DNA of 64,000 nucleotides, taken from Tubulanus polymorphus (lineage: Eukaryota; Animalia; Nemertea). Numbering within the stretch: the first letter of the stretch is position 1; every line of letters begins with the position of its first letter. The notes under the pieces are model-generated. The model was not told the DNA's origin and searched no databases. It saw only the letters and a list, made by a program, of their open reading frames with translations. A program made the translations under genes and the position numbers. The DNA is taken from assembly GCF_964204645.1 (NCBI RefSeq), contig NC_134033.1, forward strand, positions 12,098,655-12,162,654. Direction: 5' to 3'. Shown here in pieces: positions 10,401 through 64,000 of this stretch.

Positions 10401-10909
10401 GGACGTATTGGCCCACTCCGCGCGGGATTTACGCGAAGCAGCGGAAAGCAAAAAGGCCACATTCCGTATTTTTGGCAAAGTAGAAAATATGTATGAATTT
10501 CAATAATTTTCAGCTCTTAGGGTTTCAAGGCACAATATAATTATATGATGCGATAAGGTGAAGTTGATAAATGATAATGACGCAGTGAAGCTGAGGAACT
10601 ATCCCCATTGAGTGTACAGCGGTCAAAAACATATAGATTGGCGTAGAGTTACATAACTATTAGCAGTGAATTGCAGACGAAACATGAAGCCTTAATGGCC
10701 GTTTACAAATAGATCATAGCAATCTTTATTAATTCCGTTAAGTACAAAGCTTTGTAGGATAAGACAAGTTAATAAAGAAACAACACAACCGTCATGATAA
10801 TAAATCTTACTGTCTGCACCAGTATACATGTATGGCAAACTACGAATTAATCAACGAAGCACTCACGTTACAGGACAATGGCTGCGTCCATCATGGTCAT
10901 GGAGTCCCT

Positions 10910-10985
10910 CGCCTCCATGGTCTAATGGGAACATGATACGCTTGTAACCTGCTGGCCCGGGTTCGAATACTGCACTGACCGCTCA
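10910..10985 (+). mobile_element. tRNA-derived SINE-like head
   Basis: A-box-like TGGTCTAATGG and B-box-like GGTTCGAATAC at Pol III spacing. Confidence 0.4.
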
Positions 10986-26165: not shown

Positions 26166-27192
26166 AAATCATTGTTTTCTCGCGTTATTTTAGTTTTGTC
26201 GTTTTGTCGTAATGTCGCCCTCATTTGCATATTCGTGTTTTGTTATCTTATCAGCCACCATACTAAAGCTTTAAAGTCGCGTAAAACTCGATAAACACTT
26301 CATGCGACCCAGCGAACGATCTCCTTTCCCCCACAGCGAACGCTTACTCCGAATGTCAAGTGTGAGTCCAGCATACGGATACGAGTGTGTTTTATACTTG
26401 TATTTAGTAAATACCTTGTGGATTTGACAATGATCGGTATGTACTGTAGGAAATATAGAATATTGATGGTATTGATATGGAGGCCCGCGGCCGAATAAAG
26501 TAATATATTCTTTTATTTTGATACCTCGTCGACATAACAGCTTTTCTCCGCTATAATCTCTTCGGCCTACGACTCCCCGGTACACTTATGATTTATCTTA
26601 GTAAAAACACGGTAAATTTGGTAAAGAAAAATAGGTATTGCTAAATTAACTGCTTGACGCCCGCAGCCAAATCACTGGTAGTAATAAATTAATTTGTACT
26701 CGATTTGATTCTCAGAATGAGGAGAAACTCGCAGCTGATTCCCGGAACGACGATGTAGTGACACACGTCGATTTGTCGATGTTTACGGCTCGACAGTGCT
26801 TTTAAACTCCAAAGTAGTAAATTTCCTGTGTATTGGTATTATAATTTGATGAGGAAAATGTGTTATTGTTAAAATTAGTTTTTAAAAACCGCGACAGAAT
26901 GTGCAATCTTTGGGTAATAAATTTGTTAATTTATGCTTGAATCGATAATCGATGTGACAAGAAACGTGCGGTAGATTTCGGAAAGACGACTTAGAAAAAC
27001 ATGTCGGCTCTTTGAATGGGGCTCAATTTTCGATGTTTACGGCCCGACAGTGCTTTTGTAACGTTGATTCTTCAAAATTCGCACGGAGTATTTGTAGATC
27101 GAACTGAGCTGAATGATATCAGACGGATTGTATCGGCAACAGCGGTAATGTAAAAAAGCCTATGTACTTTTGACAAAAAATGTGTGGAAAAA

Positions 27193-27233: not shown

Positions 27234-27427
27234 GAAACACGCGAATCTCAATAGGGTTTTCTGTGATGTAACAGAAAACCCTAATAATCTTATAAGGTCT
27301 TCGATGATTATTCATCGTCGATAATATGGAGATATTGCGTGTTATTTTGCTTCAAATTAGTTTTCTCGTTTGCACGTCGTATATTTCAGCAGGTTGTTCG
27401 AAACACCCCGATCACCGACACAGAAGG

Positions 27428-28474
27428 ATGATGCGCTGGGTAACATATCCTCTGAGGAAGCGGCTTTCGTACGTACTGTTGGGAATGATATTATTCGTAA
27501 TTGTCGGTGGCATCTTTCTACACGCGCCAATCACTAAACAATTACGCACACGGGCGAAACCTACGTCAGCGAAAAAGGTCGAAATCGTCTGCGTTACGTT
27601 GAAAAGCATCGTCGTTAATACCAGTATGACGGTAATCACGCGGGAAAGACTTGGCAATAATATGTTTCAGTACGCCGCTCTTGTTGGGGTCGCGTTAGCT
27701 AGAGGTCATGTGCCTATCAACCTAAACGAAGGAAACGATTTGAGGAAGATATTCAACATAAGTGCTGCGAAATACCCGGATAGCGAGCTCGGTGTGCGAG
27801 TTACAAACAATTCTAATCGCTACAACGAGAATTGTTGCCTTTTCGACCCGAAGTTGATGAAAACTGTCAAGATCGCAGGGAATTTTGTGCTGAGTGGATT
27901 TTTTCAGAATTGGCGTTATTTCCATCCACACGCGTCCAATCAGCTGCGGCGAGAATTCACGTTCAGAAAGCCGGTCGCAGACGCCGCCGAATCCTTCCTG
28001 GCGAATGCAACGACGAAATTAAGACAAAAACTCGCAACTACTAAAAACAATACGAAAGTGACGTATGTGGGCGTTCATGTACGTCGTGGGGACATTACGA
28101 GCGTCGGCTATAAAAAATTAGGTATGCGGCAACCGACGATGGATTATTTCAAAAAAGCGATGGCAATTATGGAAAGTTTATACGATAACGTGTTTTACGT
28201 GATCTGCAGTGACGATTTGAAATGGTGCCGCAAGAATTTCGGCTCGATGCCGAACAAGGCGTTTTGTCCCGGCACGGATCGTCTGGTCGATCTGGCGATC
28301 TTATCGAAATCAAACCACTCGATTTTAACGATCGGATCGTTTGGATTCTGGGCCGCATTTTTAGCGAACGGTACAACGACTTATTTCGGCAGCGCCAGAG
28401 CACTCGGTACAGATGCCGATCGAATGTTCAGCTACGATCAATACTTTATGCCGGAATGGATCAAAATCCCGTAA
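27428..28474 (+). CDS. Alpha-1,2-fucosyltransferase (GT11), copy 3
   Basis: ERLGNNMFQYA, HVRRGD; TM anchor; probable start MMRWV after the acceptor ATATTTCAG. Confidence 0.92.
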   Translation: MMRWVTYPLRKRLSYVLLGMILFVIVGGIFLHAPITKQLRTRAKPTSAKKVEIVCVTLKSIVVNTSMTVITRERLGNNMFQYAALVGVALARGHVPINLNEGNDLRKIFNISAAKYPDSELGVRVTNNSNRYNENCCLFDPKLMKTVKIAGNFVLSGFFQNWRYFHPHASNQLRREFTFRKPVADAAESFLANATTKLRQKLATTKNNTKVTYVGVHVRRGDITSVGYKKLGMRQPTMDYFKKAMAIMESLYDNVFYVICSDDLKWCRKNFGSMPNKAFCPGTDRLVDLAILSKSNHSILTIGSFGFWAAFLANGTTTYFGSARALGTDADRMFSYDQYFMPEWIKIP

Positions 28475-32057: not shown

Positions 32058-32162
32058 TATAACTATTTCTCAGAACTGTAATCTAATCGATTTTTTTTTA
32101 TTTCATGAATTTCAGCTGGTTGTTTTCGATATCGCTCGAATAACGTTTTCAACACGAATTTG

Positions 32163-33197
32163 ATGAAGTATTCTGTTCGGACGATTTCGTTCGTGTTGTT
32201 CGGGATATTGTTGTTCGTGATTCCTGGCATCTACCAATTGATTCAGACGACTTCGATAGCCACCAGGAATCACCAACTGCAGGAGGTGAAAACTATTACA
32301 CGACTAACTCCGACGACGAAGGTTATGCCGAAAGGGGTCGCTACTAGTATGACGGTTATTACGCAGGCGCGATTGGGCAATAATATGTTTCAGTACGCCG
32401 CTCTTGTTGGGGTCGCGTTAGCTAGAGGTCACGTGCCTATCTACCTAAACGAGGGAAACGATTTGAGGAAAATATTCAACATAAGTGCTGCGAAATATCC
32501 GGATAGCGAGCTCGGTGTGCGAGTTACAAAAAATTCTAATCGCTACAACGAAAATTGTTGCCTTTTCGACCCGAAGTTAATGAAAACTGTCAAGATCGAA
32601 GGGAATTTTGTGCTGAGCGGATTTTTTCAGAATTGGCGTTATTTCCACCCGCACGCGTCCGATCAGCTGCGGCGAGAGTTCACGTTCAGAAAACCGGTCG
32701 CAGACGCCGCCGAATCCTTCCTGGCGATTGCAACGACGAAATTTAGACAAAAACTTGCGACTACTAAAAACAATACGAAAGTGACGTATGTGGGCGTTCA
32801 TGTACGTCGTGGGGACATTACGAACAACCACTATAGAAAATTAGGTATGAGGCAACCGACGATGGATTATTTCAAAAAAGCGATGGCAATTATGGAAAGT
32901 TTATACCATAACTTGTTTTACGTGATCTGCAGTGACGATTTGAAATGGTGCCGCAAGAATTTCGGCTCGATGCCGAACACGGCGTTTTGTCCCGGCACGG
33001 ATCGTCTGGTCGATCTGGCAATTTTATCGAAATCAAACCACTCAATTTTAACGATCGGATCGTTTGGATTCTGGGGCGCGTTTTTAGCGAACGGTACAAC
33101 GACTTATTTCGGCAGCGCCAGAGCGTTCAACACTGAAGTAGAACGTGTGTTTAGTTACGATCAATACTTTATGCCGGAATGGATCAAAATCCCGTAG
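32163..33197 (+). CDS. Alpha-1,2-fucosyltransferase (GT11), copy 4
   Basis: Same GT11 motifs; distinct N-terminus and a distinct C-terminal patch (AFNTEVERVF). Confidence 0.93.
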   Translation: MKYSVRTISFVLFGILLFVIPGIYQLIQTTSIATRNHQLQEVKTITRLTPTTKVMPKGVATSMTVITQARLGNNMFQYAALVGVALARGHVPIYLNEGNDLRKIFNISAAKYPDSELGVRVTKNSNRYNENCCLFDPKLMKTVKIEGNFVLSGFFQNWRYFHPHASDQLRREFTFRKPVADAAESFLAIATTKFRQKLATTKNNTKVTYVGVHVRRGDITNNHYRKLGMRQPTMDYFKKAMAIMESLYHNLFYVICSDDLKWCRKNFGSMPNTAFCPGTDRLVDLAILSKSNHSILTIGSFGFWGAFLANGTTTYFGSARAFNTEVERVFSYDQYFMPEWIKIP

Positions 33198-45610: not shown

Positions 45611-48600
45611 TCATTGTGTCGGATAACCACGACCCGAACGCTTGCAGAGCTTCACCGACGTTTCCAAACTGATACCCCACTTTTCGACATCTTTCAGTAA
45701 CGGCGAGTGAAGACCTTTATCGGCTTCTCGGGCTAACTGACCACATGTGACCGAATCTATGTTATATCCAACGTCGGAAAACGGGTTTGCCGGGTCCACA
45801 ATCCACGGTCTGAAAGATTAAGGACAATCATGATTTTCAGTAGAAGTTGATTAATTTTGTTTTCTTTTTACAGTTAATACAATCCTGTTTATCTAAGTAA
45901 GCATCGCCATCGCATTGTACCGAATGATTTAGGTAATACATGTTCGCCAAATAGAGATTTAATGTATGTTTGCTTCAGCTAGTATACTGGTTCAGCAGGG
46001 CTGTGCATAGCAAGGGTCAGAGGGTAGACCCCGAAATGTCGAAAAGTACCAATTTTGCAAATATCATTGTTATATCCTATATAAGAAATCTAATGTAGAA
46101 TCCTTCACGTGGGACTGACAAGCATTTTTATAAGCCAAAAATAGTTTTTATTATGGCATATTTAAGAAGAATCATTATATCGATTTTTTTGTTTTAGGTA
46201 AATCCTTTTTTGGGTTTCACTGCCCCCTCACATCCTTATGCACGGTAAGGCCCTGGAATGTATCTACACATGACGTAGATCCATCTAACGCGTAATCGAG
46301 ATGATTAGTAGATACATTCATCCATGACTGAGTAGATCCATTCATCCATCTATCCACCTATCCACATATCTGGCACTAAGATCCTCAGTGATGACTGTTA
46401 GTAGACCTAGTATTCTAAATCAGTTAATTAATAATTAACAATTACCTGCCAGGCCGCGGTTCACAGCACGGTCTGTCGTAGTTAACAGTCCATTTTATCC
46501 TAATGGACCCCGGATCCGTAAGTCGTTGTAACACGGTACGGAGTCCGACTCTGAGGTCAAAGCTCCGAGGACTTCCTGCTCTCTCCCACGTATCTATAAC
46601 CAATAACTCGTAAAAGTATGACGGCGGTCCTTTCTTGAAAATAGAAATAAGATGATTCGTTGTAAATTTCAAAACACACATGCTAACTAAGTATAAATGT
46701 TGATTGGGACGCTGCAATTTCGTAGTGATAGTTGTCACCGTCAAATTTGTGTGATCATTATACTAAAATCGGTACTAGAAAATGTCGGTAGGGGGTGAAA
46801 CTTCGTACGGGATGTAACGATGAAACTTAAATAATTCGATTCAATTTCCTCATAAATTAAATTCATCTTAACTCGATTAAAGAGTGAATCCAGTTACACC
46901 TAACTCGATTTAAGCGAAACTGAATAAAAATAATCTGGATTTATTTAGAAATATTTTGATTTAACTAGGGGTCCAGGGACACCATGCCCACTTGGAAAGT
47001 GGTTCCAAATGCTCAACAATCTAACAATTTCAATATTCAACGCCCCCTGGTGGCCATATACAGAATCCAATAACCTTGAAACTCACCACAATCATAGAAC
47101 ATGTCAGCAGCTACGATTTTGTAATTGATTGTGATAACAAAATAATCCTCGTTACCGCTATAATATGGAAATACTAAGTTATTCTACTATTCAACGCCCC
47201 CTGGTCACCATATTCAAAACCCAATGACCTTGAAACTCACCACAATCATAGAACATGTCACGAACTATAACTTTGTAATTGATCATGGTAACAAAATATG
47301 CCTAGGTACCAATATAATAAGGAAATAATAAGTTATTCTACTATTCAACGCCCCCTGGTGACCATATAGAATAACTAATGGCCTTAAAACTTGCCACAAT
47401 CATAGATGATGTCATGAGCTACAACTTTGCAATTGATTGTGGTTACAAAATATGCATTGATACGAATATAATATAGAAATACTAAGATATTGTATTATTC
47501 AACGCCCCCTGGTGGCCATATGAAAAAACCAATAACCTTGAAACTCACCACAATCATAGAACACGTTATGAGCTACAACTTTCTAAATGATTGTGGTAGC
47601 AAAATACGCTTAGGTATCAATATAATGTGGAAAAAACTTTTTCCCACTTACGAACGAGTACTGCTGACACCAAGATGGCCGCCAATTGCGTCATAATTGG
47701 CTGATGAAAAATACCTGTCTCAGGTATAAAACATCCCTTTCCAAAGAATACCCATCACAAATTGCAATGAGAAATGATAAACCAGTAGGAAGCTACAGGA
47801 CTCAGAATTTGGGCCAAAATTAACATTTTTGGGCACTAAAAAGGTCATAGGACGGCCATCTTGAGTCCGATCGACCCAATTTTTGTTATGCTGATGGGCC
47901 CTGGGGGAATTCACATATATCCGAAAGATCAAGGTAATTGATCAAAGCGTCTTCAAAATTTCCCTCAAAAAGTTCAAAAATGTGTAAAAAGTGCTGATTT
48001 TGGCGAACAACAATGGCTGCCAGTCGGCCATCTTGAATCTGACTGGGCCAGTTTTAGGCTGAAGATGTGTCTAGGGTAGATACATGCGTAACCCAAATAT
48101 CAAGATATTACCTTGAAGCGTCTTCAAAACTTCCCAAAATAACTGGATTCCGTCTACGGCCGGACGGACGACGGACGAAAAGTGAACGCAATAGCCCGCT
48201 GGGACTAAAGTCCCAAGTGGGCTAAAAATTAAACTTTTCATGAAATCGAGGCCAGAAGTGAATAAGTCGTGTACATATGCTACGCAATCAAGGAACAACG
48301 ATTGGGTGCTCAGATCGTAGGAACAGCAAGCCGCGCAATAATCTGCTGAATATCTTAAAAGAAACATCAAGGTTCAAATCTAGACTATTTTGTGATTGAA
48401 AGTGTTGATATTAGAGAAAACCTGGGTTCAGACGGTATGTTCTACTACCGATCCCTATTCAAACGTACTTTATCATTTACCTAGAATTTAGAAATCTAAC
48501 CTGGAAAGAACGTCTTGTTTTTGACCAGTATTTCACTGTTCGTATCAGACTTTTTACGATCGTAGGTTGTTTCTTAACGAATTCGAGCTGTAACGGGGCA

Positions 48601-49834
48601 AGTGGTGCAGAATAGAATCCCCTCGACCTACCATCGATATTCCGCATTTCACCATAGATATCTGCCTCTAAAAACGTTAAAATTAATCCATGCTTTTATT
48701 AATTCTCTGTCAACTCTCTGTTGGTTTTACTGATCTAACTGTGGATTTTACTGATCAACACGTATATCGATTATGATAGACACGCTTACTACCAGGATAG
48801 CGTTTCAAGATATCGTAAGTTGGCAGAAGGTCAACTTCGTGGAACTCGTCATCATAGCGTCCCCGGAGTTTCAAGTTTATCAGGTATGAATCCCGACGAA
48901 TCAATTTCAATTTGCCCTCTCTGTTCCACTTATGGGCGGCCAGAATATCCCATATGTTATCGATGCACTCTTTAATTTTGAGTTGTATATTGTCCATGCC
49001 GCGGAAATTGTTGATATACATCACACAGTCGATATCGGCCTTGCCAATGACGGCTGTACCTTTACCTAACGATCCGGACTAGAATTAGAAAAAAAGACAC
49101 GTACACGCAACATATCAACAAAATGCACTAAAGATATCACATTCACCATATACAGCTAGCTGCTAAACATTGAAGTCACAAAAACAGTCCTACGAACTGA
49201 AAGTAACTGATAAGGCCGGCGTTAGAGTCGAAGACTTGAAATGGCGGTAGCGCACAAATCAAAACGCTAAAAAACCTCTGCTTTGTGTTTTCTGCAATGT
49301 GTGTTTCTCCGAACACGAAACATTGCCATGTGCGCACGACTTACATTGTTTTTAATGACATGCGTTTAATTCGTTTTCATTTTCATTCAGACAAAATAGT
49401 GTCCTTATCGTTTTTTGTTTGTTTTGAGGATTCCGAGGTTGACTGCAAAAGGCATCTGGCGGTGTAAGTACGTACCTTAGAGCGCCAGTCCTAACAAGTT
49501 ATCGATACGGTTTTTACCTTAACAACTTCACTGACGTCGAATGGCACATTTTCGGAATGAAGATACCTTATCAACATGTCAAGAGCTCGTTTAAAACCGT
49601 CGTGGTATTCTTCCGTAGGTTGGATGGAATGAGCTTGAAATGTGTTCATCTCTGAATTGCACGTATCATAAGGACTTTTAACACGTATATTCATTGATCA
49701 GAAGCCAGTTCTTCAAAATTTGCAATAGAAAACCATTAGATGCCTTAATTATTATTCTGACCTACCCCTTTGAGACATTTGCATTCGCATGATATCATCT
49801 TGAACATTAACTGCTGCTTCTTGTTCATCATTCC
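45611..49834 (-). CDS. OAS: 2'-5'-oligoadenylate synthetase-like nucleotidyltransferase; exons approx. 49834-49768, 49651-49517, 49078-48790, 48668-48501, 46635-46445, 45811-45611; 5' end not found
   Basis: VSEVVKSGSLGKGTAVIGKADIDCV (GS plus DxD), EVDLLPTYDIL (third Asp), LQLEFVKKQPTIVKSLIRTVKYW, PPSYFYELLVIDTWE, RPWIVDPANPF: the full OAS motif set. Confidence 0.9.
46965..48224 (-). mobile_element. Non-autonomous Helentron (HINE-like), copy 2, in an OAS intron
   Basis: Same ends as 20686-21787 (CTAGGGGTCCAGGGACACCATG ... GGGACTAAAGTCCCAAGTGGGCTA); four 154-bp internal repeats. Confidence 0.78.
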
Positions 49835-50216
49835 TGATGGATATGCGTGAAACAGAATAACAAAAAGTTGACTTTACACTCAAATGTTAACATAGATCTA
49901 TGCTAATTGTATATAATCGAACGAGTCCCAATGTTACAGGTTGATTGATCGATTTTCGGTTGCTAGTAAAATGGCGGATGGAGGATTCTCCCGTATTTTA
50001 ATCACAGGGACTAATTGTCATTGTTGATAGTGAATGAATAAAACCAGTACCGTCACATGTATCAATGACCAAATCCAGATGTATCTTCTTTATTTGCAGG
50101 TATACTGGGATTGGTCATTGAAATTGGTTTTGTATGGTCATTGATACTGGTTTAGTGCACCAGGTCCATGTGGTTTGGATTCTTCAGCATCTTGGTTGGA
50201 TGAGTCTATAAAACCA

Positions 50217-50525
50217 CTACTCGAATGGTTTTACTCAAACCGTTTACGTTTTCGACAAAACAAATGTGCAAAACCGGTATTTTTTAGTAAACGAAGTGGA
50301 TATTTAACCGTATACGGCAAAGTGTTTACTTCCGCTATTTTACCGTACATCATTGCTATATATTATAGTTTAAACTAATAAAAGTAACTATAAAATCATT
50401 TTATTCGGTTTAGGGTCTAAAGGACTCAAAGGGTTAGGTTTAGAGATAGAGGTTAGAGTCCGTTTTGCCCCTAGGGATGGGTGAGGGTAAGGTTGGGCGC
50501 TATAAGTAGTTAAAACATTCGGTAG
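50217..50525. repeat. About 310-bp segment with imperfect inverted ends and telomere-like (TTAGGG-like) motifs; a MITE or the Polinton terminus
   Basis: CTACTCGAATGGTTTTAC versus GTTAAAACATTCGGTAG; contains ACTACT (50216) and AGTAGT (50505). Confidence 0.4.
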
Positions 50526-53180
50526 GAGTAATTAGAAAAGTGGGGTTTCATACCAGAGGGCGAGAGGGCGAGACACCACTCATCACCACAAGTAATTTTT
50601 TTTCCTAATAAATGGGGGAGAATGAACACCAACTAGAAAACAATAATGTCAATAAAAATCAATATTATTGTCAATATTGTAAAAAATACATCGATACATC
50701 TCATAAAACACGACATGAAAAAACTGTAAATCATATAAAAAATGTAATAGATTTTGAAACTCCAGAAAATTCTAATGAAAGAAAAGAACGATTAGAAAAT
50801 ATGAATGTGGATGAAATAAAATGTGAAGTTTGTAATGAATTTATAGTAAAAAGGAATTATAATAGACATCTCGAATCACAAAAACATTATAAAAATTTAA
50901 ATAAAAATGTTTTAGGATTAGAATATTTTGATAATAAACCTCAACAAGTAAAAGAATCAACTTCAAAAACTAAATCAATTTCAAATAAACCTTACATGGA
51001 AAATGTTAGAAATTATATTGATTCACTAGAAATAAAAGATACAATTGAAATCTTAGAAACATTACATAGTAAAATTGGTCCTGCAGCTATTATATTTAGA
51101 TTTTTTAAAGGTACAACAATAGAAGATTATAGTACATTTAATGAAATAATAGAAAAATTACTAGATTTGATAACAGATGTTGAATATCCAAAAATTAGTA
51201 TCTCTGGGAAAGTAAGTTTTATAAAGTCAGAAGAAAAAATGAATTATAATATTCAAACACACTCTGAAGAAATAATTTCAAAAACACAAATAAAAGAGAA
51301 GTTAGAAAAAATATTAAATGAATTTAAACGTCATATTGAAGAAAGATATTTTGAGGGTTCTGGCTTAACATTGAATGAAATTATATATTTAGATTTAAAT
51401 GTTTATAATACAAAAAGGAATAAAACATCAAAAAGTAATAAAATGTTTAAAAATGATTCAAACTTTACAACAGAAAAGGATATTAAAGCATCATCTTATA
51501 TTAAATTACCATTTACAACAAAAGCAGTAATAAATGTTCAAAATGAAGATAATAAATGTTTTCTATGGTCAATTATTAGTTGTTTACACCAAACAGAAGA
51601 TATGACGCATAGTTTTAGAATAACAAATTACCGGAAATATGAAACATTATATAAAATTGATCAATATCCAGTAACTATAAAAATGATTCCTAAAATAGAA
51701 AAAATTAATAATTTAAAAATAAATGTATTTGAATTAATGCAATTACCAAAGACAAAAGGTGAAAATATTAAAGATTATACATTGGAAGCTTTATATTTAA
51801 CAGAATATTATGATGATGAAAATGCTATAGATTTGTTATATTACAAAAAAGATGAAAATGAACATTATATGTGGTTAAAACAAATTGATTTATTCTTTTG
51901 AACAACAGAAAGTGATCATCATCGTAAAATTTATCTATGTAGAAAATGTTTATCTAAATTTATGACTGAGAATACATTATTAAAACATAAAGAATTATGT
52001 GATAATAAAGATTTTTGTAAATTAATAATGCCAACAGAAAAAGATTATAAATTGAAATTTACTAATCATAAATTTAAGAATATTGTTCCATTTGTAATTT
52101 ATGGGGATTTTGAATCGTTGAATAAAGAATTAACTGATCAAGATAGAAAAGAAATATATAACAAAAAGCAATTATTAAAATCAATGGATAAAGGAAATGA
52201 ATTAAATGAAGACGCAATACAAGACCCACCAATTATAAATACAATTAAAAAAGTTCATCAAAGAGCTGCTGCTTATGGAATTTACATCAAATCAAATTAT
52301 CCCGAATTATATGAAAGTCAATATATTTCTTTTAGAGGTGAAAATGTAGTTAATGATTTTTGTGATAAAATGATTGAATTAGAAAGTGATTTTACAAAAT
52401 TATTAAACAAAAATAAAAGAATAGTTATGACAAAAGAAGATGAAATTGATTTTAATTATGCAACTCATTGTTGTTACTGTGAAAAACGTTTTTATTCATT
52501 TGATAAAAAAGTTAGAGATCATGATCATTTAAATTCAAAATATCGTGGAGCTGCTCATGAAGATTGCAATTTACAAGCTAAAAAAGTAAATTTCGTACCA
52601 ATATTATTTCATAATTTATCAGGATATGATACCCATCTACTTATAAAACAATTATCGGGAAAATTGGGCGCAATTAATCAAGAAATAGAAGAATATAATG
52701 CTATGAATGAAGCAAATGTAAGAAAATATGATTTTAAACTATTAGCTAAAACATCTGAAAATTATATTTCATTTCAATTTGGTTGCATTAGATTTTTAGA
52801 TTCTTATAGATTTCTAGCAAGTTCATTAGATAATTTATCAAAAAGTTTAGTTGATAATGATTTTGTTATAACTCGATATTATTATCCAAATGAACAAGAT
52901 TTTAAATTATTGAGATATAAAGGCGCAATTCCTTATTCATTTTATAAAACACATGATGATTTTAATGTAACAGAATTATTAAAAGATCAATTTTATGATA
53001 AATTAAAAGAGGAGTATGTGAAAGACGAAGTGTTTAATAGAACATTAAATATTTGGAACCATTTTAAGATGAAAAATCATGGCGAATTAGTTGATTTATA
53101 TTTAAAATCAGATGTTATGATATTGGCTGACATATTTGAAAAATTTAGAGAAGTTAATTTGAATCATTTAAATGTTGATC

Positions 53181-56100
53181 CGGTTCCTGAACTTCGCTGA
53201 AAAAGCTGAAACACTGAAACGCTGAATCGCTGAAATAAAAACGCTGAAATTTCAGGGAATTTCCGAAAAACGCCGAAATTTCAGGGAATTCCCGAAAAAC
53301 GCTGAAATCGTGCTAGGTACCGACAATACTCGTTTTGAAATATTTTCCGGGCCGGTGTCCGCTGCCGAGTCCTGAACCGTGTTTTGCATGGGCAGTATGT
53401 GTGGAGTATACTTCTAGAGGGCCACTTGTTGGACAAATTAATTCGCTTGAAATCCGGATTTTTAATGCATACAGGCAGCATGATGAGGAAAACCCATTCA
53501 CAAACCGTGCAAGCCAACTTAAACACTATGCTCAATATTCCAAGAATATGGTTTACTTCTGCAAGACGTAACGTTCATTCATGTATAAAACAGGATTATG
53601 AGCAACTTTTCTTTTGTCAACACGTTGATGGGCGACGGACTATGGTATTCTCTGAAGGAGGTAAATTAAATTTGACAGCTAGTTATATAAATGATGCAGC
53701 TTTTGGACAAAAGGGATCTAACTAAATTTCTTTTTTATTCACCGTGGAATGGAATGGATTGACGCCAATGACATGCAGTAGGCCCCTACTTATAGGTCAT
53801 ACCAATTAGCGTCAACCAATTAATCTAAATCGGGCAAACCATTCAACACCTGTAATTTATTTGCTGTGGTGTGATAATAATAAGTTTTTTTTGAAAAAAT
53901 GACATACCAACTGTTAGAAAAATTTACCGATTCTTATTTTTAGACTACTACGGTAATACCGATAAAGATAATCTATAAAAGGAGGAGTCATAGACAAAGT
54001 TGATTTGCCTAGCTGGACACACTTCTTGTCCAGTTCATCATCTCAAGTATTGGGTGTTTTGTAAGTTGTTTCAGTATTTATTTACAAAGTGCTGTTCCCT
54101 CGGACCTCAGTGCTTTCAAACTAGGCCCACCCCATAGGCTATATCTCCAGGGTGTATTAGCCACTACTCTTTTATTTCCTACTTTAAATGCACTTTTTTC
54201 AATTTTTAGACTCGGGCTAAGAATGTGCAAATTTGAGAAATCAGATAGCACTAGTTAACTTCAACTGCGAAATTTACAGCAGGATAGCTGAACGACACAA
54301 TTTTTAAAAACAAAATGGCTATTTGAATGCTATTTCAGTAATAACTTGATTCAACCAGAGAGAAATAAGTCAATTGCGGATGTACAGTACACCCACTTTA
54401 CTTATCCGTTTTCCTGGTACCAAATTTGTTATCTTAAGCTAAGCAATATTCTTAGGTATGCTAGTGAATTTCATTAGAATATGAAGCAATGGAACCAGAA
54501 TTCAAGCCCGAGTTAAGCGAACTATTGATTCTGATATAATGTAAGAACTGATTTCTTTTGTGTACTCTTGCAGAATGTGTTAAGTATTATTTTAAGCTGT
54601 TAAATGATATAGTTAGACAAACGTCCAATTATTGGATCTTTCTTGTTGACTCGTTTAATTTTGTGAGTTTAGAGTTCCAGTCAATCCACAATGTGTAGTG
54701 CCTAGCCTTCATCTAGTACTAAAGCCAAGCCTGTGTATGGGAAAACGTTGTTCGACTCTCATAAGCCAGACAAATCAAAGCATGCAATACATTGCAGATA
54801 GTAGTATCCAGCAAGTAGACAGAGAAAGTAAACCAGGTTTTACCCTGTACCCTACCCGGCATCTTCACCTGTCAAGGGATTCGAACCCACTACACTAAAG
54901 CTGTTCTCCGAACCGCTTGACCTCACGAGTCGTTACTAGCCGACCAGAATCAGGTCGGGCCAATCACAGCGCTTGTTACAAATGACATTGGGCATCTGTG
55001 GAATTTCCCGGTAAATGGACCAATCAGCGAACACGTAGCGAAGGGGAAGTATTGTCGCGTGTTGATATATGACGTCATGCTCAAAAGCGCCGGTAATGAA
55101 ATCGCGCGTCGTGAGGCCAGGGGGCTGCTGGAAGCGAGTTTGGGAGCAATACTGGTCTCCTGGCAAGCGAGGATGCCTACCCGGGAACGAAAGACACTTC
55201 AATACTCCTTTCTTGTAGAGATTGTAGAAATATGGCACCCAATCGTAGTAATGCTAAGTACCAGTATACTATGACGGTTGAACCTTTATTCACACCGAAA
55301 TAGAATCAAAGTAGTCATAAGTTCCATGCTAGCACTTAATTTGGGTTATCAGGTTCAGCCTAACTAGCTGTACTTTCATTCAGCTACTACTTTTGTATGA
55401 GAATTGGCAATGATAAGTTGCAAGAAATCACCAAACATAAGAAAAAATATTGAGAATTAATATTACTGTAATTAAGAATTTATTCAAATGAAGTGATAAT
55501 TTCATTGTTAGATCGTACCGGTATATGCGCATAAAACAAAAAACACATCTAACAATCCACGCAAATCGCAATGCAAAAACCGTAAAGTTTCCCAAGTCTC
55601 TGTTTATAACGCATGCGCATTAGGAAGTGTTGGGGAAATCCTCTAAGTCTAGAAACTGGTCGCGTGCGCATGCGTCGCTACATGTGTATTTTTTCCTAAA
55701 CTGGGTCATGTCAGAACGCTGAAACATAGAACTATAACGGACTGAACTTGCGTGAACTTATGCGCAGCGGGAAGGCGCAGTTTGTTTGGTCACTTACGAG
55801 GATCATTTGTATTTTTTGGAATGACAGGTGTTCAAGTGGTCTTGCCATAAGCTGAAAATCTAAGATATATATCGGTATATTAAAAAGGATGAATGTATTT
55901 TTCTGCTACACATTCGGGATTCGAACCTAATAGCACTTAAAAGTAAATCCTGTCTATTTTATGTTCATTGTTTCATATTCGGGATGCTGTAACTTTTTCC
56001 TTGGCAAACAATAACCCAGCGACACTTTAATCATCAAAGTTCATGTCGTAACGCTTGAAATACGATCAGTAATTTTCGGGTTTCGAACCTGATAGCGCCG

Positions 56101-56585
56101 CTTAAGATGAACAGCGTAAATAAGATCAATATTTTTACGGGATTCGAACCTAATGGAAACTACAGTGACTATTAGTCATTAAAGTTCACATGCAGTTCAC
56201 ATGTAGTGCCGCATGCGCAATGTGCCGATTTCGCGACTAAGAGCAATTCCAGCACTGACTAATGCGCATGCGTTAGGTAGAAACGGAGACTTGGGAAACT
56301 TAACGGTTTTTGCATCCGCAATCGATCAAGTCGAACATGACGACGACCTCAAGGCATGTCTCTGTAACCGAAGGTAGAGACTAAAACGGTTCAGGACTCG
56401 GCAGCGGACACCGGCCCTGAAAGAATTTCAAAACGTGTATTGTCGGTACCTAGCACGATTTCAGCGTTTTTCGGGAATTCCCTGAAATTTCGGCGTTTTT
56501 CGGAAATTCCCTGAAATTTCAGCATTTTTATTTCAGCGTTTCAGCTTTTCAGTGTTTCAGCTTTTTCAGCGAAGTTCAGGAACCG
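53181..56585. mobile_element. Non-autonomous DNA transposon, about 200-bp TIRs, 9-bp TSD ATGTTGATC (Mutator/Foldback-like)
   Basis: TSD at 53172-53180 and 56586-56594; TIRs 53181-53380 and 56386-56585; removal restores the pPolB frame; no transposase ORF. Confidence 0.92.
55570..56315. mobile_element. Nested inverted-repeat element inside the 3.4-kb insertion
   Basis: ATGCAAAAACCGTAAAGTTTCCCAAGTCTC...CTACATGTG is mirrored at about 56197-56315; internal GGG(A/T)TTCGAACCT repeats. Confidence 0.6.
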
Positions 56586-57577
56586 ATGTTGATCCTTGTT
56601 ATTGTTATTCTAGTCCTGGTTTAACCTGGCAATGTGGTTTAAAATATACAAATGTAGAATTAGATTTATTAAAAGAACCAGATATGGTTTTATTATTTGA
56701 AAAATCAATTAGAGGTGGAATTAGTGGTGTTATGGGAGATAGGTATTTTAAAGCAAATGATGAATATAAATTATTATATATTGACGCTAATAATTTATAT
56801 GGTTGGGCAATGATGCAACCTCAACCATATAAAAATTTTATATTAACAGAAGTTGAAAATGGTGATAAAACTGATTGGGAAAACGCAATTGCGAGTTTAA
56901 AAGATGAAGCACCAATTGGTTATTTCTTTGTAGTTGATTTAGAATATCCTTAAAATATAAAGTTTAAAACAAGAAACTTACCTTATTGCCCAGAACATTT
57001 AACTGTAGATGATAGTTATTTAAGTGAATACCAGAAGAAAATAAAACCGAAAGATCATGTTTTTACAGAAAAATTAATACTTACTCAAAATAATAAATAC
57101 AATTATATTGTTCATTATAGAATGTTAAAATTTTATCTAAAACAAGGAATGAAATTAAAGAAAGTACATAGATATATTGAATTTAATCAATCGAAGTGGT
57201 TAGAAAAATATATAGATTTCAATACTCAACAGAGAACCATATCAAAAACAGATTTTGAAAAAGATTTTTTCAAATTGATGAACAATAGTTTTTATGGAAA
57301 AACATGTGAAAATATTAGAAATAGAAATGATATTGAATTAGTAAATAATTCTGAAAGATTAAGACATTTACAATCAAGTCCTAGACATTTAGGAAATAAA
57401 AGATTTGAAGATTATTTAACTGCGGTAAAATTAAAAAGAACGTCCATGAAATTTAATAAACCAATATTTATAGGTTCAACTGTTTTAGAAATTTCAAAGC
57501 TATTGATGTATGATTTTTATTATAATGTTTTACAACCACTTTTTGGGGAAAAACATATAGAAATCTTATATTTTGAT

Positions 57578-58630
57578 TCTGTTACAGCAGACACCCCAAT
57601 ATTATTAAAATACAATAACCAAATATTAATTAGAAGAATTTCAGAAATAATTCCTAATCAAAATAAATCTTATATTTCGTATGGTAAAAAAGAACTAATA
57701 CAAATAAATGGATTAATGGATGTTTGGACAAGAAATGGATGGAATATTATTAGACATAAAACAAATAAGAAAATCTATAGAGTTAGAACTAAATTAGGGT
57801 TTGTAGATGTTACTGAAAATCATAGTTTGATTAAACAAAATGGTAATGAAATAAAACCAACTGATATAAAAATTGGAGATGAATTATTACACAACAGATT
57901 TTACCCAAGAATGAATCATATGTCATTTGATGAAATAATTGATAATATTTATAATATAGAACCCGAAACATTAGAAGAAAAAGAATATTTTATCAAAGGA
58001 TTTTTCATGGGAGATGGTTCAGCAGGTGTGTATAAATATGTTTGGGGTAATAAATATTGTTGGTATTTATGCAATCAAGACTTAAAATTATTAGAAAGAA
58101 TTAAGAAATTCTGTGAAGAAGTTTATTCACATAAAACATTTAGAATCATGGACCATATGAAATCATCCGCGGTTTATAGAATATTTGTAAATAATCCTAA
58201 AGATTTTGCTACAAAATATAATGATGAATTCTATATTCATGCAATAGTGAAAAGTAATACTTCAACAAAAGAAAAGATAGTTCCAGATTATGTATTGAAT
58301 GCAAAAATTAATTTAAGAAAGTGGTTCTTCATTGGATTCTATGCCGCAGATGGTTCAAAAAGGTTCCAAAACCGCAAAACAATATCCTTTGCTCAAAAAG
58401 GAAAAGTTGCTATATCAGGATTGAATATATTATGCAGTTCATTAGGATTTAATATGAATATTGGATTGATTAAATCTAAACCAAATTGCTTTAATCTAAG
58501 CCACACAGAAAATGAGTTAACTGAAGAAGTTAAAGATTTATTTGAAATATATAACCCAACAGATTATGTTTATGATTTATCAACTGAAGATGGTACATTT
58601 AACTGTGGATTTCCATTAATAGCCAAAAAT
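57578..58630 (+). mobile_element. Intein (351 aa) with a dodecapeptide LAGLIDADG homing endonuclease, in pPolB motif C
   Basis: YFD|SVTADTPILL (block A), DVTENHSL (block B TxxH), FIKGFFMGDGS and FFIGFYAADGS (blocks C and E), YVYDLSTEDGTF (block F), LIAKN|TDS (terminal Asn, +1 Thr). Excision restores YFDTDS. Confidence 0.95.
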
Positions 58631-59082
58631 ACTGACAGTTACATACTAAAAATCAAGACAAATGATATAACAAAAGACTTAAAAACATTAAAACATTATT
58701 TTGATTTTAGCAATTATCCTAAAGATCATGAACCATTTAGCAATGATAATAAAAAGATTCCTGGTAAATTTAAAGATGAATTAGGAGGTGATGAAATGAT
58801 TGAATTTGTTGGGATAAGAAGTAAAATGTATAGTTACAGAACAAAAGATCATGAAGCTAAAAAGTTAAAAGGAATAACAAAACATGTGGTTGATAAACAT
58901 ATAGAATTTCAAGATTATATAAAGTGTTTATATAACTCAATTGTAATGAAACACAAGATGAATTGTTTAAGATCAGAAGATCATGAGATGTACATTAATG
59001 AAGTTGAAAAAACTAGTTTAAATCCATTTGATGATAAAAGGCATATTTCAGATGATGGTATAAAAACATTACCTTATGGCCA

Positions 59083-60393
59083 TTAAAACATAAAATCAAT
59101 ATCATCATACTCGAAATCACTATTAGCTTCTTCATTTTCATTTAATTGTTCAGGTTCTTCTTCCATTCCATTTTTCTCATTTAAATAAATTTCTATCTTG
59201 TTCCACATTTCATCTCGCTCTCTTTGTTTCTTTTTGTTTGTTAATTCATCAAATGGAATTATAATATCTAGGTTTAAATAATTTACAATCTTATTTAAAA
59301 AGAATTCATAATTTATTGAATCTGTTATTCTATTTTCCAAATGATACATTAATATTTGTTTAAATATTTTTTTTATATTTTCCATATCTTCTTCTGTTAA
59401 TTTAGGTTTTTCATAATAATCGTTAAATAATAAATATAAATACATTTTCTTTTGTTTTGTGTTAAATGTTGGTGGAATAATTGTTTTTATGATATCTTTT
59501 TTAGTTATTTCACCATTTTTATTTTCTATTATTTTCATTTTTTCAAGCCATTGCATATATTCTGGTGTATGATCTTCTATAGAAAATGTTTTAAAAATTT
59601 CATCAAGATAATTTAATTTTGGATCTATGAGAAAATCTCTAGTTTTTTCTTCACCCCATAAATTCTTTTGCCATCCACATTCAACACAAAATAACACAGT
59701 ACCTTCTTGTCTTAAGGTCGCATAAATACATCGTGGACATTTTTGTTTATAATTTACTGGTAATAGATCTTCATTAAGCTCTTGGTATTTTCTTACGTTT
59801 TCTTTATGTTTTATTGTTCTATTATGTAGATTTGAATTACTTGTTGTAATAATCAATTTACAATATTTACAATAATATGTTTTTCTTGTTAATTCATTAT
59901 ATTGTTTTTCTAGCTTTTCAACTGTTTCTTCATTATCTGGTAATGTTTTCTCATATTTTATTTTTTCTAATAAATTATTTTTTCTTGCATTGAATTCAGT
60001 TTCAAATTTATTAGAAATTTTATCTATATGTACTTTACGAAATTGATGATTCTCCCAATCTTCTATATTTTCAGGGTTATATTTTATTCGACAAGGCTCA
60101 CAGAAATGATCTTTTATATTATCCTTATCATAGAATAAGAAAGGTCTTTTCCAAATAATTTCAGGTTCAACTTCAACAGAATTATTATTACTTTCGTTAC
60201 TGTCAACATTAACTATTAAGTTATTATTTTTACACTTATGTTTTTTGAAATAATTTCTAGAGAATGTTTTATTACAATTTGGACAGTTTATTTTAGGGGG
60301 TTTATAATTTTCATCATGTTTTTTCATATGTCGAGCCATATTACTTTTTCTTAGAAGTTCACCACAAATTTCGCATGTTATCTTCTCATCCAT
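59083..60393 (-). CDS. Multi-zinc-finger protein with a C-terminal VLTF3 (poxvirus A2)-like late transcription factor domain
   Basis: N-terminal C2H2/matrin-like fingers; zinc ribbon CPRC...CVECG; C-terminal PKLTEEDMENIKKIFKQI...SINYEFFLNKIVNYLNL...KKKQRERDEMWNKI resembles the VLTF3 signature. Recognised by eye only. Confidence 0.6.
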   Translation of the reverse strand: MDEKITCEICGELLRKSNMARHMKKHDENYKPPKINCPNCNKTFSRNYFKKHKCKNNNLIVNVDSNESNNNSVEVEPEIIWKRPFLFYDKDNIKDHFCEPCRIKYNPENIEDWENHQFRKVHIDKISNKFETEFNARKNNLLEKIKYEKTLPDNEETVEKLEKQYNELTRKTYYCKYCKLIITTSNSNLHNRTIKHKENVRKYQELNEDLLPVNYKQKCPRCIYATLRQEGTVLFCVECGWQKNLWGEEKTRDFLIDPKLNYLDEIFKTFSIEDHTPEYMQWLEKMKIIENKNGEITKKDIIKTIIPPTFNTKQKKMYLYLLFNDYYEKPKLTEEDMENIKKIFKQILMYHLENRITDSINYEFFLNKIVNYLNLDIIIPFDELTNKKKQRERDEMWNKIEIYLNEKNGMEEEPEQLNENEEANSDFEYDDIDFMF

Positions 60394-60461
60394 TTATTAA
60401 GGAAAAATTTTATTAAAATTAATTTTTAGTGATGAGCGGTAATTTTTTTATGTTATAAATA

Positions 60462-61258
60462 ATGGTAGAATTAAAAGAATACAGAATATTTGTTGATTCT
60501 AGAAAACTTATAAATTATAAATCTCATAATTTATTAGTACAATTAGATAGAGAATTTAAGAATTGTGTAGATTTAAAATTAGTAAATATAAGTTTATGTA
60601 ATTCTTTTTATAATATATCAGATAAAACTGATGAACATAGAAGCCTTCTTATTTTTGATAAACTTGAAAAAAATGGATTCAACTTATGCTTACACCAGGA
60701 TTATATGATTTAGAAACATTAGAGCAAGAAATTAATAGAAAAGCTCGGATTAGATTAGGTAATGGTAATTCTAAATTTAATATTAAATTCATAAAAAGTG
60801 AGAGCTCTAATAAAATTAAAATAAAGCTTGATGATGAACTTATTAAACTTGATAAATCTAATCCATTGATGACAAGAAGACATACTTACACGGTAAAAAA
60901 ACCTAAAGCTAAACTATTAGGAATTACTCCAAATCAATTTGGTGGAAACAAACACGGTAACTCAAATATAATACCTTTTACACACTTTTATATTTATTGT
61001 AATTTAATCGATCCTACAAAAACATTCGAAGCAACTAAAGATACAACATGTAATTCTAGTATATTAAACATTTTACCATTGAAGAATGTTAAACAATTTG
61101 GAACGCAAATAAATTATAATTTAGCTGAATGTGATTTTAAACCTTGTATTCCACATTTCAATAATTTTAAATTAGAAATAAGAAATCATAATGGTTATTT
61201 AATTGATTTGAATAACTTTCCTGTAATTTATGAATTAGTTATAAGATGTAAAGAGTAA
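60462..61258 (+). pseudogene. Minor capsid (penton, single jelly-roll)-like gene, frameshifted near 60670-60690
   Basis: Two overlapping ORFs join into IFVDS...KLVNISLCNSFYNIS...PGLYDLETL...FYIYCNLID...ILNILP...LEIRNHNGYLIDLNN..YELVI, the pattern of Polinton/virophage pentons. Confidence 0.65.
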
Positions 61259-61274
61259 TTTTTCCCCTATATAA

Positions 61275-61631
61275 ATGAATATAACTGTTGGACCGAGTAT
61301 ATGTTTTGGATTTGATTTTTAACGTGAGAAAGAAATGAAATTTAACATTAATGATGTAATAACACATATCAAAAATATTGTATTTTCTAATGAAACAACA
61401 TTTGAGTATGAAACAACAATAGATAAAGAAACTTTAAATGTAGAAAAGATTACTAATTTAATTAGAGAATTTTTAAGATTTTATGAATTAGATGAAGATT
61501 TTATAATCGATGATATTAAAAAAATAATAATTGAAATATATACAAATGAAACTAGTAATAAAATAAATGTTGAATTAATCATAAATAAGTTAACTAAATA
61601 TTTTGATGATAGTAATTTTTTTGATAAATAA
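61275..61631 (+). pseudogene. Hypothetical viral protein with a premature TAA at 61320-61322
   Basis: The ATG at 61275 follows the element's shared promoter motif and is in frame with ORF 61335-61631. Confidence 0.55.
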
Positions 61632-61853
61632 ATGAGTGATAATAAGTGGATAATAACTGGATTATATAATGGCGCATTACTATCAGTTGGAACGGTTGGT
61701 TATTCAATGGTATTAAAAAAAGTATTCAAAATGGGAAGCGTTAATGTTGATAGATTTGATATCAATGATATCTTAAAATTAACATTAGCAGTTACTTTAT
61801 CTAATTTAACAATTGATTATTTGGAAAAACAAAAATATATTCCTCCCATATAA
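61632..61853 (+). CDS. Small hydrophobic viral protein (73 aa)
   Basis: Intact ORF with TAAATG start and two hydrophobic segments. Confidence 0.65.
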   Translation: MSDNKWIITGLYNGALLSVGTVGYSMVLKKVFKMGSVNVDRFDINDILKLTLAVTLSNLTIDYLEKQKYIPPI

Positions 61854-61878
61854 ATGCATAATTTTTTTTGCTAAATAA

Positions 61879-62301
61879 ATGGCTTCTGCAATTATAACTA
61901 TTATAGGATCAGCAATTGTTAACGCTTTAGCATTCACTGGTGGTGGTTATTTATTTAAACATATTGATAAAAATAGTTCATTAGGAGAACAAAGAAGACA
62001 TAACTTAGCGTTAGAGAAATACAATAAAGCTGCAGAAGAATATAGAGAAAAGAGGCAAAACTATATGGATTACATCAATAAAGAATTATATGATCAGAAG
62101 ATTTCACATAGAGATTTTCAATCAGTTGATGATGCAATGAGTTTATATAACGCAGTAACAAATAAAGAAAAATTACATCTATACAAACCTAAATTATCAG
62201 ATTATTATACCCCAAGTAAAGAACAACAGAAATATGAAATGATATGGATTTTAGGTGGAACAGTTATTGTTATATTTATTGCTTATAAATTTACTAATTA
62301 G
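61879..62301 (+). CDS. Viral membrane protein (140 aa): N-terminal hydrophobic helix, coiled coil, C-terminal TM
   Basis: IIGSAIVNALAFTGGGYLF...RHNLALEKY...WILGGTVIVIFIAY. Confidence 0.7.
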   Translation: MASAIITIIGSAIVNALAFTGGGYLFKHIDKNSSLGEQRRHNLALEKYNKAAEEYREKRQNYMDYINKELYDQKISHRDFQSVDDAMSLYNAVTNKEKLHLYKPKLSDYYTPSKEQQKYEMIWILGGTVIVIFIAYKFTN

Positions 62302-62320
62302 TAATTTTTTTGTTAAATAA

Positions 62321-62755
62321 ATGGAAGATAAAGTTGATAGTATTGATATTATTCCTCATGATATAAATAAAACTAAATTAAAAACATATTTAGAAAGACA
62401 AATATTAGAATTTGAAAGTGACTTAAAGATAAAAAAGAAAAAATATCTAAAAAGTAAAATTACATATTATTTGATTATAAGTGGTTCGGTTACAATTAGT
62501 TCTGTAATAACATTTTTAGCAATATTCAGTCCATTAACACCTTTAGCTATATCAATTGGTGTATTAGGATTAAGTTCAAGTGTTTTAACTGGTATAAGTT
62601 CAAAATTAAATATAAAAAGTAATAAAGAAAAAATAAAATCTAATATAAAAGAAATTAATAAATTAAAGAACACACTAGATTATATAATAAGTTTAAATGG
62701 CCATATAACAGTTGAAGAACAAGATAAATTATTAAAAGAATTAATAAATTATTAA
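62321..62755 (+). CDS. Two-TM viral protein with flanking coiled coils (144 aa)
   Basis: Hydrophobic hairpin YYLIISGSVTISSVITFLAIF-SPLTP-LAISIGVLGLSSSVLTGI. Confidence 0.65.
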   Translation: MEDKVDSIDIIPHDINKTKLKTYLERQILEFESDLKIKKKKYLKSKITYYLIISGSVTISSVITFLAIFSPLTPLAISIGVLGLSSSVLTGISSKLNIKSNKEKIKSNIKEINKLKNTLDYIISLNGHITVEEQDKLLKELINY

Positions 62756-62771
62756 TTTTTTAGTTATATAA

Positions 62772-63911
62772 ATGGGGTTTCCAAAAGCTTTCCAATATAA
62801 TAAATCACATGAATATTATAAATATAATACTCCAGCAATAGATTTTAGTAACATGATAATATATAAAAATTTAGTTTTACCTTCATTGATTAATTTAGAA
62901 ATTTATGTTACTGAAACAAACTATTTTATTTCTAAAATGGAAAATATATTTAATACATATGAAGTTACTTTTACTCGAGATGAATATAATATATATAAAC
63001 TAAAATCTAATATGAAATATTGGCAGAATCAATTAAATTTTGCTGTTCATTGTGCAACAGCTGGTTGTGGTGTAAGTTGGCATGATCACTTGAATAACTT
63101 AGATAAAAATTTGAAATATTCTGATTTAAAATTCATTCATACAATATTTAGATTTCATGTATACTTTCAAATTAGAATTATATTAAATGAATTAGAATGC
63201 CCTTTACCTGGATCAAAATATTTTAAAGAATTAGATAATAATATTAATCTATCTAAGTTTTATAAAATATGTAATGAATTTAATATAAATATTAATTTCG
63301 ATTTTAGAGCGCATGGTAAATTGCAAGGTGTCGGTGAACAGTATGAAATAAAAAGAATTGATTTTATGCATAGAATTGGAGCTTATCATAATTATAAAAT
63401 TAATAATAATAATGGTTGGGTTTATTTTATTGAATCTTATAGTGAAGGATTTACAAAACCCGGTATACAAAGAATAAATCAATCAATTAGAACTTATTTG
63501 ATATGTATTTTAGGTGCACAAGTTGAAACAAGATCACCAATAGTTGGAAATAATAGTACTTCATTTGATGCGCAGAAACAATTCAAAGTATTATTTGAAG
63601 ATTCCATTCATAATGATAAAAATAGATCGATTCCAGAAAACATTGTAAGATATCAAAATTATTTAGATAAATCACATATTAGATTAAATTATTGTATAGG
63701 ACCTAATCTATTAATTATTTCTAATGATTTAGTATTAAAGATGGGAAATATAATTGGTTATAATAATCTAATTAAAACTGCAACAATAAATAATTCAATT
63801 GGATTAAATGATATAAATAAAAAGATTATTACTGCTCCAAAATTAATGGAAGGTGAAAAAAATAAAAACATATTCAATCAACAGAAACTAAAACTAATAA
63901 TATTAAATTGA
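62772..63911 (+). CDS. Uncharacterised Polinton-associated protein (379 aa, possibly frameshifted at its 3' end)
   Basis: Long AT-rich ORF with TAAATG start; motifs WQNQLNFAVHCATAGCGVS and FRFHVYFQIR. Confidence 0.65.
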   Translation: MGFPKAFQYNKSHEYYKYNTPAIDFSNMIIYKNLVLPSLINLEIYVTETNYFISKMENIFNTYEVTFTRDEYNIYKLKSNMKYWQNQLNFAVHCATAGCGVSWHDHLNNLDKNLKYSDLKFIHTIFRFHVYFQIRIILNELECPLPGSKYFKELDNNINLSKFYKICNEFNININFDFRAHGKLQGVGEQYEIKRIDFMHRIGAYHNYKINNNNGWVYFIESYSEGFTKPGIQRINQSIRTYLICILGAQVETRSPIVGNNSTSFDAQKQFKVLFEDSIHNDKNRSIPENIVRYQNYLDKSHIRLNYCIGPNLLIISNDLVLKMGNIIGYNNLIKTATINNSIGLNDINKKIITAPKLMEGEKNKNIFNQQKLKLIILN

Positions 63912-64000
63912 ATAATGATTCCAAAATAAAAGATTACAATACTATAGAAAATGGTGCCGTACGGCACCCACACGGTGATATTAAAACCGATAAAATTCAA

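Follow-up and report, generated by a model that had tools for sequence, protein, structure and literature searches.

The Mavericks or Polintons of animals are the closest described systems to the element reported here. According to the main text of PMC8502044, they possess a DNA polymerase B of the protein-primed type (pPolB), small membrane protein genes, an rve integrase, an A32-type ATPase and a double jelly-roll capsid protein, and occur as AT-rich multi-copy insertions. These features are shared by an element at the right end of a 64,000-nucleotide stretch of the nemertean Tubulanus polymorphus genome (contig NC_134033.1, positions 12,098,655 to 12,162,654; hereafter the window), the integrase, ATPase and capsid through a syntenic relative, L031. 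The element is likely a Maverick/Polinton ('adintovirus') of the Beta class of Starrett et al., a placement made by description and not by sequence comparison. Two of its features, an intein in motif C of the polymerase and uniform TAAATG gene starts, are unmentioned in the main text of PMC8502044, where the words 'intein' and 'promoter' do not occur.

Other described systems share single features with the locus. Mobile nuclease domains inside Polinton polymerases have been reported (PMC10748475, PMC11071308), and intein invasions were proposed in one sentence as their source (PMC11071308). In the accessible text of these articles the insertions are of the HNH, VSR and GIY-YIG types, whereas the insertion described here is an entire intein, whose splice-junction residues lie in the catalytic motif and for which an empty allele exists. 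Coral polintoviruses (PMC11131425) likewise possess a VLTF3 homologue in an animal Polinton; the accessible text reports neither intein nor promoter in them, and the VLTF3 of the window is fused to N-terminal zinc fingers. The PLVs (Polinton-like viruses) linked to entomopoxviruses (PMC11296320) are also small integrative DNA viruses of animals and are proposed poxvirus parasites. They were co-sequenced with their helper, and their accessible text gives no match for promoter, VLTF or intein, while the present element is known from DNA alone. Homing inteins are scarce in eukaryotes, and animals, Mavericks and Polintons do not figure in the main text of PMC10710043. A literature search covering main texts, mostly of freely available papers, found no published Polinton intein or TAAATG starts. 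The Polinton-borne intein clade appears to be the new part of the present findings.

The element is a decayed integrated copy of a multi-copy animal Polinton. The host part of the window is animal DNA of about 40% GC, and the GC profile falls to 22-27% at about 50,505. The depth of raw DNA reads from the same species steps up at about 50468. The left end of the element was placed at an AGTAGT motif, which is a typical Polinton end, and the partner repeat lies outside what the window shows. Polintons are bounded by terminal inverted repeats and a target duplication of 6 bp, and the right end of this one lies past the window. Most of the 76,397 reads aligned to the window were 90-99% identical or less, so the family is multi-copy and diverged. 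The copy in the window is damaged, a fact that the earlier note did not mention: it contains in-frame stops, one of its genes is split, and a transposon of 3.4 kb has inserted. Its protein-primed polymerase places it among Polintons, as PF03175 was found on the window fragments and, above cut-off, on full-length homologues. A search of 48000-64000 against Rfam gave zero matches, and so did a search of a phage collection. The principal features are as follows.

50505..64000, no strand assigned: endogenous Polinton/Maverick, left part, with its right end past the window (GC fall, depth jump, synteny with the related loci L029 and L031)
50612..59086, plus strand: pPolB gene with an endonuclease-VII-like domain (Pfam PF03175 and PF02945; homologues P0160, P0161 and P0164)
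57578..58630, plus strand: intein in polymerase motif C, 351 aa long and bearing two LAGLIDADG motifs (sequence, Pfam, read skips)
59083..60393, minus strand: zinc-finger and VLTF3-like protein of 436 aa, VLTF3 match at about 59179-59412 (Pfam, ESM Atlas)
50590..62774: seven starts with a T-run and TAAATG, the ATG being at 50612, 61275, 61632, 61879, 62321 and 62772 (plus strand) and at 60393 (minus strand)

The intein comprises 351 codons in frame and splits motif C between YFD and TDS. It has the features of a Class 1 homing intein, namely Ser (or Cys) as first residue, here Ser, Asn as last, Thr at +1, a TxxH block, an in-frame position in a conserved motif, and a LAGLIDADG endonuclease along with an empty allele. 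Pfam LAGLIDADG_3 scored 29.4 bits on it (cut-off 22.5), and Intein_splicing also scored 29.4 bits, under its cut-off of 35.8. The penultimate residue is Lys, the same as in several giant-virus alleles. A PDB sequence search with the intein gave zero matches.

The intein is polymorphic: some copies carry it and others lack it, both in the family of the window and in that of P0161. In the raw reads, 74 reads with 49 different starts skip exactly 1,053 nt and 55 additional reads show the same net skip. Depth inside the intein is about 140-265 against 325-730 in the flanks, that is, down by about half. The P0161 cluster has 136 members; among the 14 compared, seven carry the intein, six are without it and one has a shortened form. 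Carriers are mutually 97-100% identical throughout. Between carriers and empty members, identity is 98-99% far upstream, drops to 89% over the 41 residues that precede the site and to 78% over the 33 that follow it, and returns to 96.5% further on. Such a dip would be expected of homing if flanking sequence of another Polinton had been co-converted. In such a mechanism the LAGLIDADG nuclease would cut empty alleles, repair would copy the intein along with flanking codons, and protein splicing would restore motif C of the polymerase.

To place the intein, relatives were collected from the best 150 matches among 50%-cluster representatives. One of these (P0003, 73%) also matched the exteins of the window, and most of the others were flanked by YGD and TDS, with the intein running from Ser to Asn, as in RNA-primed PolB. 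A C-terminal motif of the intein is common to 15 viral contigs, 13 of which are named giant-virus metagenome-assembled genomes. The motif-C inteins of giant-virus PolB, which we take to be the Mimivirus-type allele, share with the intein of the window the site (YxD/TDS), the ends, the LAGLIDADG domain and an identity of up to about 42%. The latter differs from them in its protein-primed polymerase host, its setting in an animal-genome element and its own clade. A search of long proteins revealed four further pPolBs with an intein at the same site (P0160 62%, P0161 49%, P0162 48% and P0164 42%). P0162 represents the other polymerase class, with zero BLAST match to the exteins of the window and a PF03175 score of 111 bits. 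A metagenome scan with P0160 found zero loci.

The pPolB inteins formed a single clade in two trees (Shimodaira-Hasegawa-like approximate likelihood ratio 100; 100/100), built after removal of near-duplicates and with PolB inteins of 300-400 aa. In a 47-intein tree rooted on topoisomerase and other-site inteins, this clade (five of the 47 rows, 100/100) was nested among RNA-primed PolB inteins, and the P0162 intein grouped with those of the window and P0160 at 99/90. On the basis of this nesting and of the position of P0162, a giant-virus-type PolB intein was likely captured once by Polintons, long ago, and likely moved later between Polinton classes. The first transfer would have been from a giant-virus-type PolB to Polintons, after which the intein would have spread from Polinton to Polinton by homing. 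An earlier note on this DNA had recognized a giant-virus-type PolB intein, and its relatives and nested position bear that out; the note also took the intein as a sign of possible gene exchange with a nucleocytoplasmic large DNA virus (NCLDV) of this animal, a reading that finds no support, the intein being of an old Polinton clade. One giant-virus subclade, hinted at by the shared C-terminal motif, was considered as donor and set aside, as the tree did not join them.

The same intein family was also observed at an acidic motif of topoisomerase II, and in PolB at a second site, in the set P0225, P0228, P0135, P0125, P0043, P0007 and P0163, some proteins of which carry two intein copies. In P0010 and P0015 a related intein, nested among giant-virus-type inteins, lies in family-B polymerases with a motif B that presumably is T4-phage-like, hinting at a possible virus-to-phage intein exchange.

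TAAATG was found at seven of nine candidate starts, in every case a few bases downstream of 5-8 consecutive T, compared with 27 of 419 other ATGs of the element (binomial p ~1.5e-7). The poxvirus-late-like starts proposed earlier are thereby upheld. The upstream T-run matches vaccinia late promoters. In vaccinia, TAAAT is the initiator of intermediate and late genes, at which the polymerase slips and thereby adds a leader of poly(A) (PMC6211774). The motif also precedes the polymerase and VLTF3 genes. Its distribution was studied in 80 partial metagenome loci, kept from 177 matches found with the ORF (open reading frame) at 62772; 27 are TAAATG-type, 42 have none and 11 are unclassified. The 27 show it at 127 of 147 conserved starts (86%) against a background of 4%. 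It is strict at 36-39% GC in L039 (7/7), L059 (9/9), L063 (8/8) and L068 (6/6). Among 13 viral contigs with the same polymerase type, L003 has it at 6/6 starts and the other 12 at 0-1 per locus, L024 (22% GC, 1/14) included; for eight viral contigs with this polymerase type at 22-36% GC the figure is 0-1. On a 57-row tree, made of classified loci with a protein of at least 280 aa, the trait changed at least three times. Intein was absent from all six TAAATG loci in which motif C can be seen (L003, L038, L042, L043, L081 and L082). As judged from these sequences, the motif is real and discrete, extends beyond this element and shows no tie to the intein. Counts of T5NT terminators were not used, being confounded by A-rich coding strands.

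The earlier note had presented the intein, the VLTF3-like factor and the starts as three independent traits co-occurring within about 6 kb of one element. The traits themselves are real, and 'independent' is an interpretation and not an observation; a lineage-defining package of the three is not supported, as intein is missing in many family copies and in all six checkable TAAATG loci. The possibility raised there that the motif is generic to all AT-rich Polintons is half borne out; it occurs in 27 of 80 related loci and is near absent in the eight AT-rich viral contigs. Separately, L042 and L043 combine a TAAATG-type virion module with the other (pfam03175-type) polymerase class, a pairing consistent with polymerase swapping.

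The VLTF3 match of the minus-strand gene holds narrowly. PF04947 scored 26.5 bits on the C-terminal part of the protein (cut-off 25, E 6e-6) and was not detected in a scan of the whole protein, and the top ESM Atlas matches were VLTF3 clusters (0.94 and 0.93). The factor named in the earlier note thus survived its check. Searches with the VLTF3 part gave zero homologues at E 0.001 among 597 candidates and zero loci in the viral-contig scan; a single-sequence model had a predicted local distance difference test score (pLDDT) of 43 and was unused. VLTF3 in Polintons was reportedly described by Krupovic and Koonin in 2016. It is also listed in a figure legend by Starrett et al. (PMC8502044), and the homologue of coral polintoviruses was attributed to exchange with giant viruses (PMC11131425). 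VLTF3 in Polintons is already published and not new.

The genes right of the window were represented by L031, a locus of 11.5 kb and 20% GC with TAAATG at 15 of 17 ORFs, which keeps the gene order of the window at 53-90% identity over seven shared ORF matches. Beyond the shared genes it has a capsid, an rve integrase, an A32 ATPase and a deoxynucleoside kinase, as well as the N-terminal part of a zinc-finger/VLTF3-like ORF. The kinase (10343-10981, minus strand; Pfam dNK 110 bits), in a TAAATG-type Polinton, is a gene typical of large DNA viruses. The capsid was modelled as a double jelly roll (pLDDT 86). It is 7-15% identical to NCLDV and virophage capsids, its structure matches, while its identity to the capsids found at 25 further loci of the same Polinton family, with and without TAAATG, is 30-56%. 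It had no Pfam match at E 0.01, and a PDB sequence search with the capsid profile gave zero matches. No adenovirus-type cysteine protease was found among 462 ORFs of the 80 partial loci as scanned with a single query, and this gene is variable in one Polinton group according to the accessible part of 10.64898/2026.06.19.733378.

The remaining features of the element are listed below.

53172..56594, no strand assigned: DNA transposon insertion (53181-56585), its terminal inverted repeats 203 nt long, flanked by a target duplication of 9 bp (53172-53180 and 56586-56594)
60462..61258, plus strand: gene for a probable minor capsid protein, here divided between two ORFs (42-67% identity to L029 and L031, where it is a single ORF)
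61275..61631, plus strand: small conserved gene, interrupted here (start resembles L031:1333 and L029:944)
61632..62301, plus strand: two small conserved membrane-type ORFs, 61632-61850 and 61879-62301 (74-90% to L029 and L031)
62321..62755, plus strand: SLATT-like two-helix membrane protein (PF18142 weak, E 0.006, below cut-off; 77-81% to L029 and L031)
62772..63911, plus strand: conserved Polinton virion-module protein of 379 aa, about 440 in relatives (271 homologues)

The polymerase gene is interrupted by in-frame stops at 51899-51901 and 56951-56953 besides the transposon. Other Polinton copies are without the transposon, because 134 reads skip its 3,414 nt. The transposon itself is non-coding and multi-copy, with nested repeats and an inner inverted pair (55571-55608 and 56278-56315). 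The product of 60462-61258 has viral structural neighbours in the Atlas, including DUF5901, and is a probable minor capsid protein. The earlier note saw no major capsid, packaging ATPase, protease or integrase gene in the window. Capsid, integrase and ATPase were seen just in L031, but the virion module is partly represented in the window by this split minor-capsid homologue. The families of the two small membrane-type ORFs have 21 and 20 members across loci, and 61879-62301 likely represents the 'cupiennin' class of Starrett et al., labelled by description. In the same way 62772-63911 is likely the 'GasderminX' class; scans of viral contigs with this ORF or its alignment gave zero loci. The other genes are largely canonical, as judged in the relative L031.

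The host side of the window was read by us as a metalloprotease-like exon and tandem glycosyltransferase-like genes. Four tandem genes (12148-13227, 15838-16977, 27308-28474 and 32109-33197) appeared alpha-1,2-fucosyltransferase-like on our reading, made without a family search. A long A-rich tandem repeat array with minus-strand open frames lies at about 21800-26300. Just left of the element, short minus-strand ORFs (48071-49021) gave the impression of nucleotidyltransferase/Mab-21-like host gene fragments, with zero Pfam matches.

Taken together, we lean slightly towards an explanation in which a decayed multi-copy Polinton carries an intein captured once and homing between Polintons, and its TAAATG starts reflect transcription by a poxvirus-type helper. 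The lineage would be transcribed by a helper polymerase of this type, as read from the uniform starts, with VLTF3 as an accessory adaptor; the traits would record several distinct encounters with large DNA viruses, spread over a long period, and not a chimeric or transitional virus. Helper-virus dependence by itself, argued mainly from the promoter, falls a little short of an even chance. It is the best reading of a start motif that stands before genes of every class, those for polymerase and VLTF3 among them, and it has a precedent in the PLVs packaged with entomopoxviruses (PMC11296320, accessible text). The deoxynucleoside kinase of L031 was also counted for the explanation as a whole. The element may reflect an old, possibly continuing dependence on a large DNA virus. 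More tentatively, and with the balance tipping against it, many animal Polintons with strict TAAATG may be endogenous virophages of poxvirus-like invertebrate viruses, a shared virus factory having let the giant-virus intein into pPolB, where it would now be homing. Several points weigh against the explanation favoured here. Neither a helper virus nor any transcript or 5' end was observed, host reads not having been screened for NCLDV markers. TAAATG tracks GC, occurring in 25 of 32 classified loci at or below 40% GC and in two of 37 above. Zero VLTF3 domains were found in the 80 partial loci, the sole trace being the homologue of the ORF N-terminus cut at the end of L031. VLTF3 alone does not imply a borrowed polymerase or helper, because mriyaviruses, presumed to be nuclear, keep it while lacking an RNA polymerase (PMC11253617, accessible text). 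The identity dip around the intein site could be target-site divergence in the empty alleles. The rooted tree was made under LG+G4 with no mixture model and from BLAST-picked rows; its deeper nodes are partly open and it singles out no donor. P0160-P0164 were compared as proteins alone, with start motifs outside the comparison.

An autonomous nuclear Polinton, transcribed by host RNA polymerase II with its own VLTF3 late switch and with the intein as unrelated passenger, is rather unlikely. The rve integrase and many integrated copies agree with it, as do VLTF3 in the polymerase-less, presumed nuclear mriyaviruses (PMC11253617) and the coral Polintons already known to have VLTF3 (PMC11131425), both as given in the accessible text. 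However, TAAATG adjoins the start codon in every gene class, and a late switch made by the element is a poor explanation for its presence before the genes of the polymerase and of VLTF3 itself; VLTF3 was also lacking in the 26 other TAAATG loci, all partial. With a TATA box at the position of TAAATG, transcripts would begin within the ORF, and for scanning, T at -3 makes a poor context. That TAAATG merely results from close packing of AT-rich genes, with stop and start codons adjoining and an A-rich context at starts, the three traits being unrelated passengers without bearing on lifestyle, is improbable. The strong tie to low GC, the three or more trait changes on the 57-row tree and the TAA at 61629-61634, which is the stop of the upstream gene, speak for it. 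They are countered by the excess of the motif at starts over background, its strictness at 36-39% GC and its near absence in viral contigs that are AT-rich and share the polymerase type (L024). Most motifs, moreover, are not an upstream stop, and the first and divergent genes have TAAATG too. The intermediate between Polintons and small Nucleocytoviricota suggested in the earlier note is hardly credible. VLTF3, the kinase of L031 and a capsid fold with NCLDV capsids as best structural matches may be cited for it, but virophage capsids match at the same low identity, solved matches include no Polinton capsid, and the sequence relatives of the L031 capsid are of its own Polinton family. The idea fails because syntenic L031 has an ordinary Polinton capsid beside an rve integrase and an A32 ATPase. 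Nucleocytoviricota and mriyaviruses are recognized by an NCLDV-type capsid, an RNA-primed PolB or HUH, and VLTF2; the polymerase of the window is a pPolB, the L031 capsid is of the Polinton family, and neither VLTF2 nor HUH was noted among the ORFs scanned.

The polymorphic pPolB intein clade may serve as a marker of physical contact of Polintons with giant-virus-type DNA and of distant Polintons with each other, because for homing the two DNAs must meet in a single cell. The TAAATG class, in turn, makes the expression of animal Polintons and their need for a helper directly testable.

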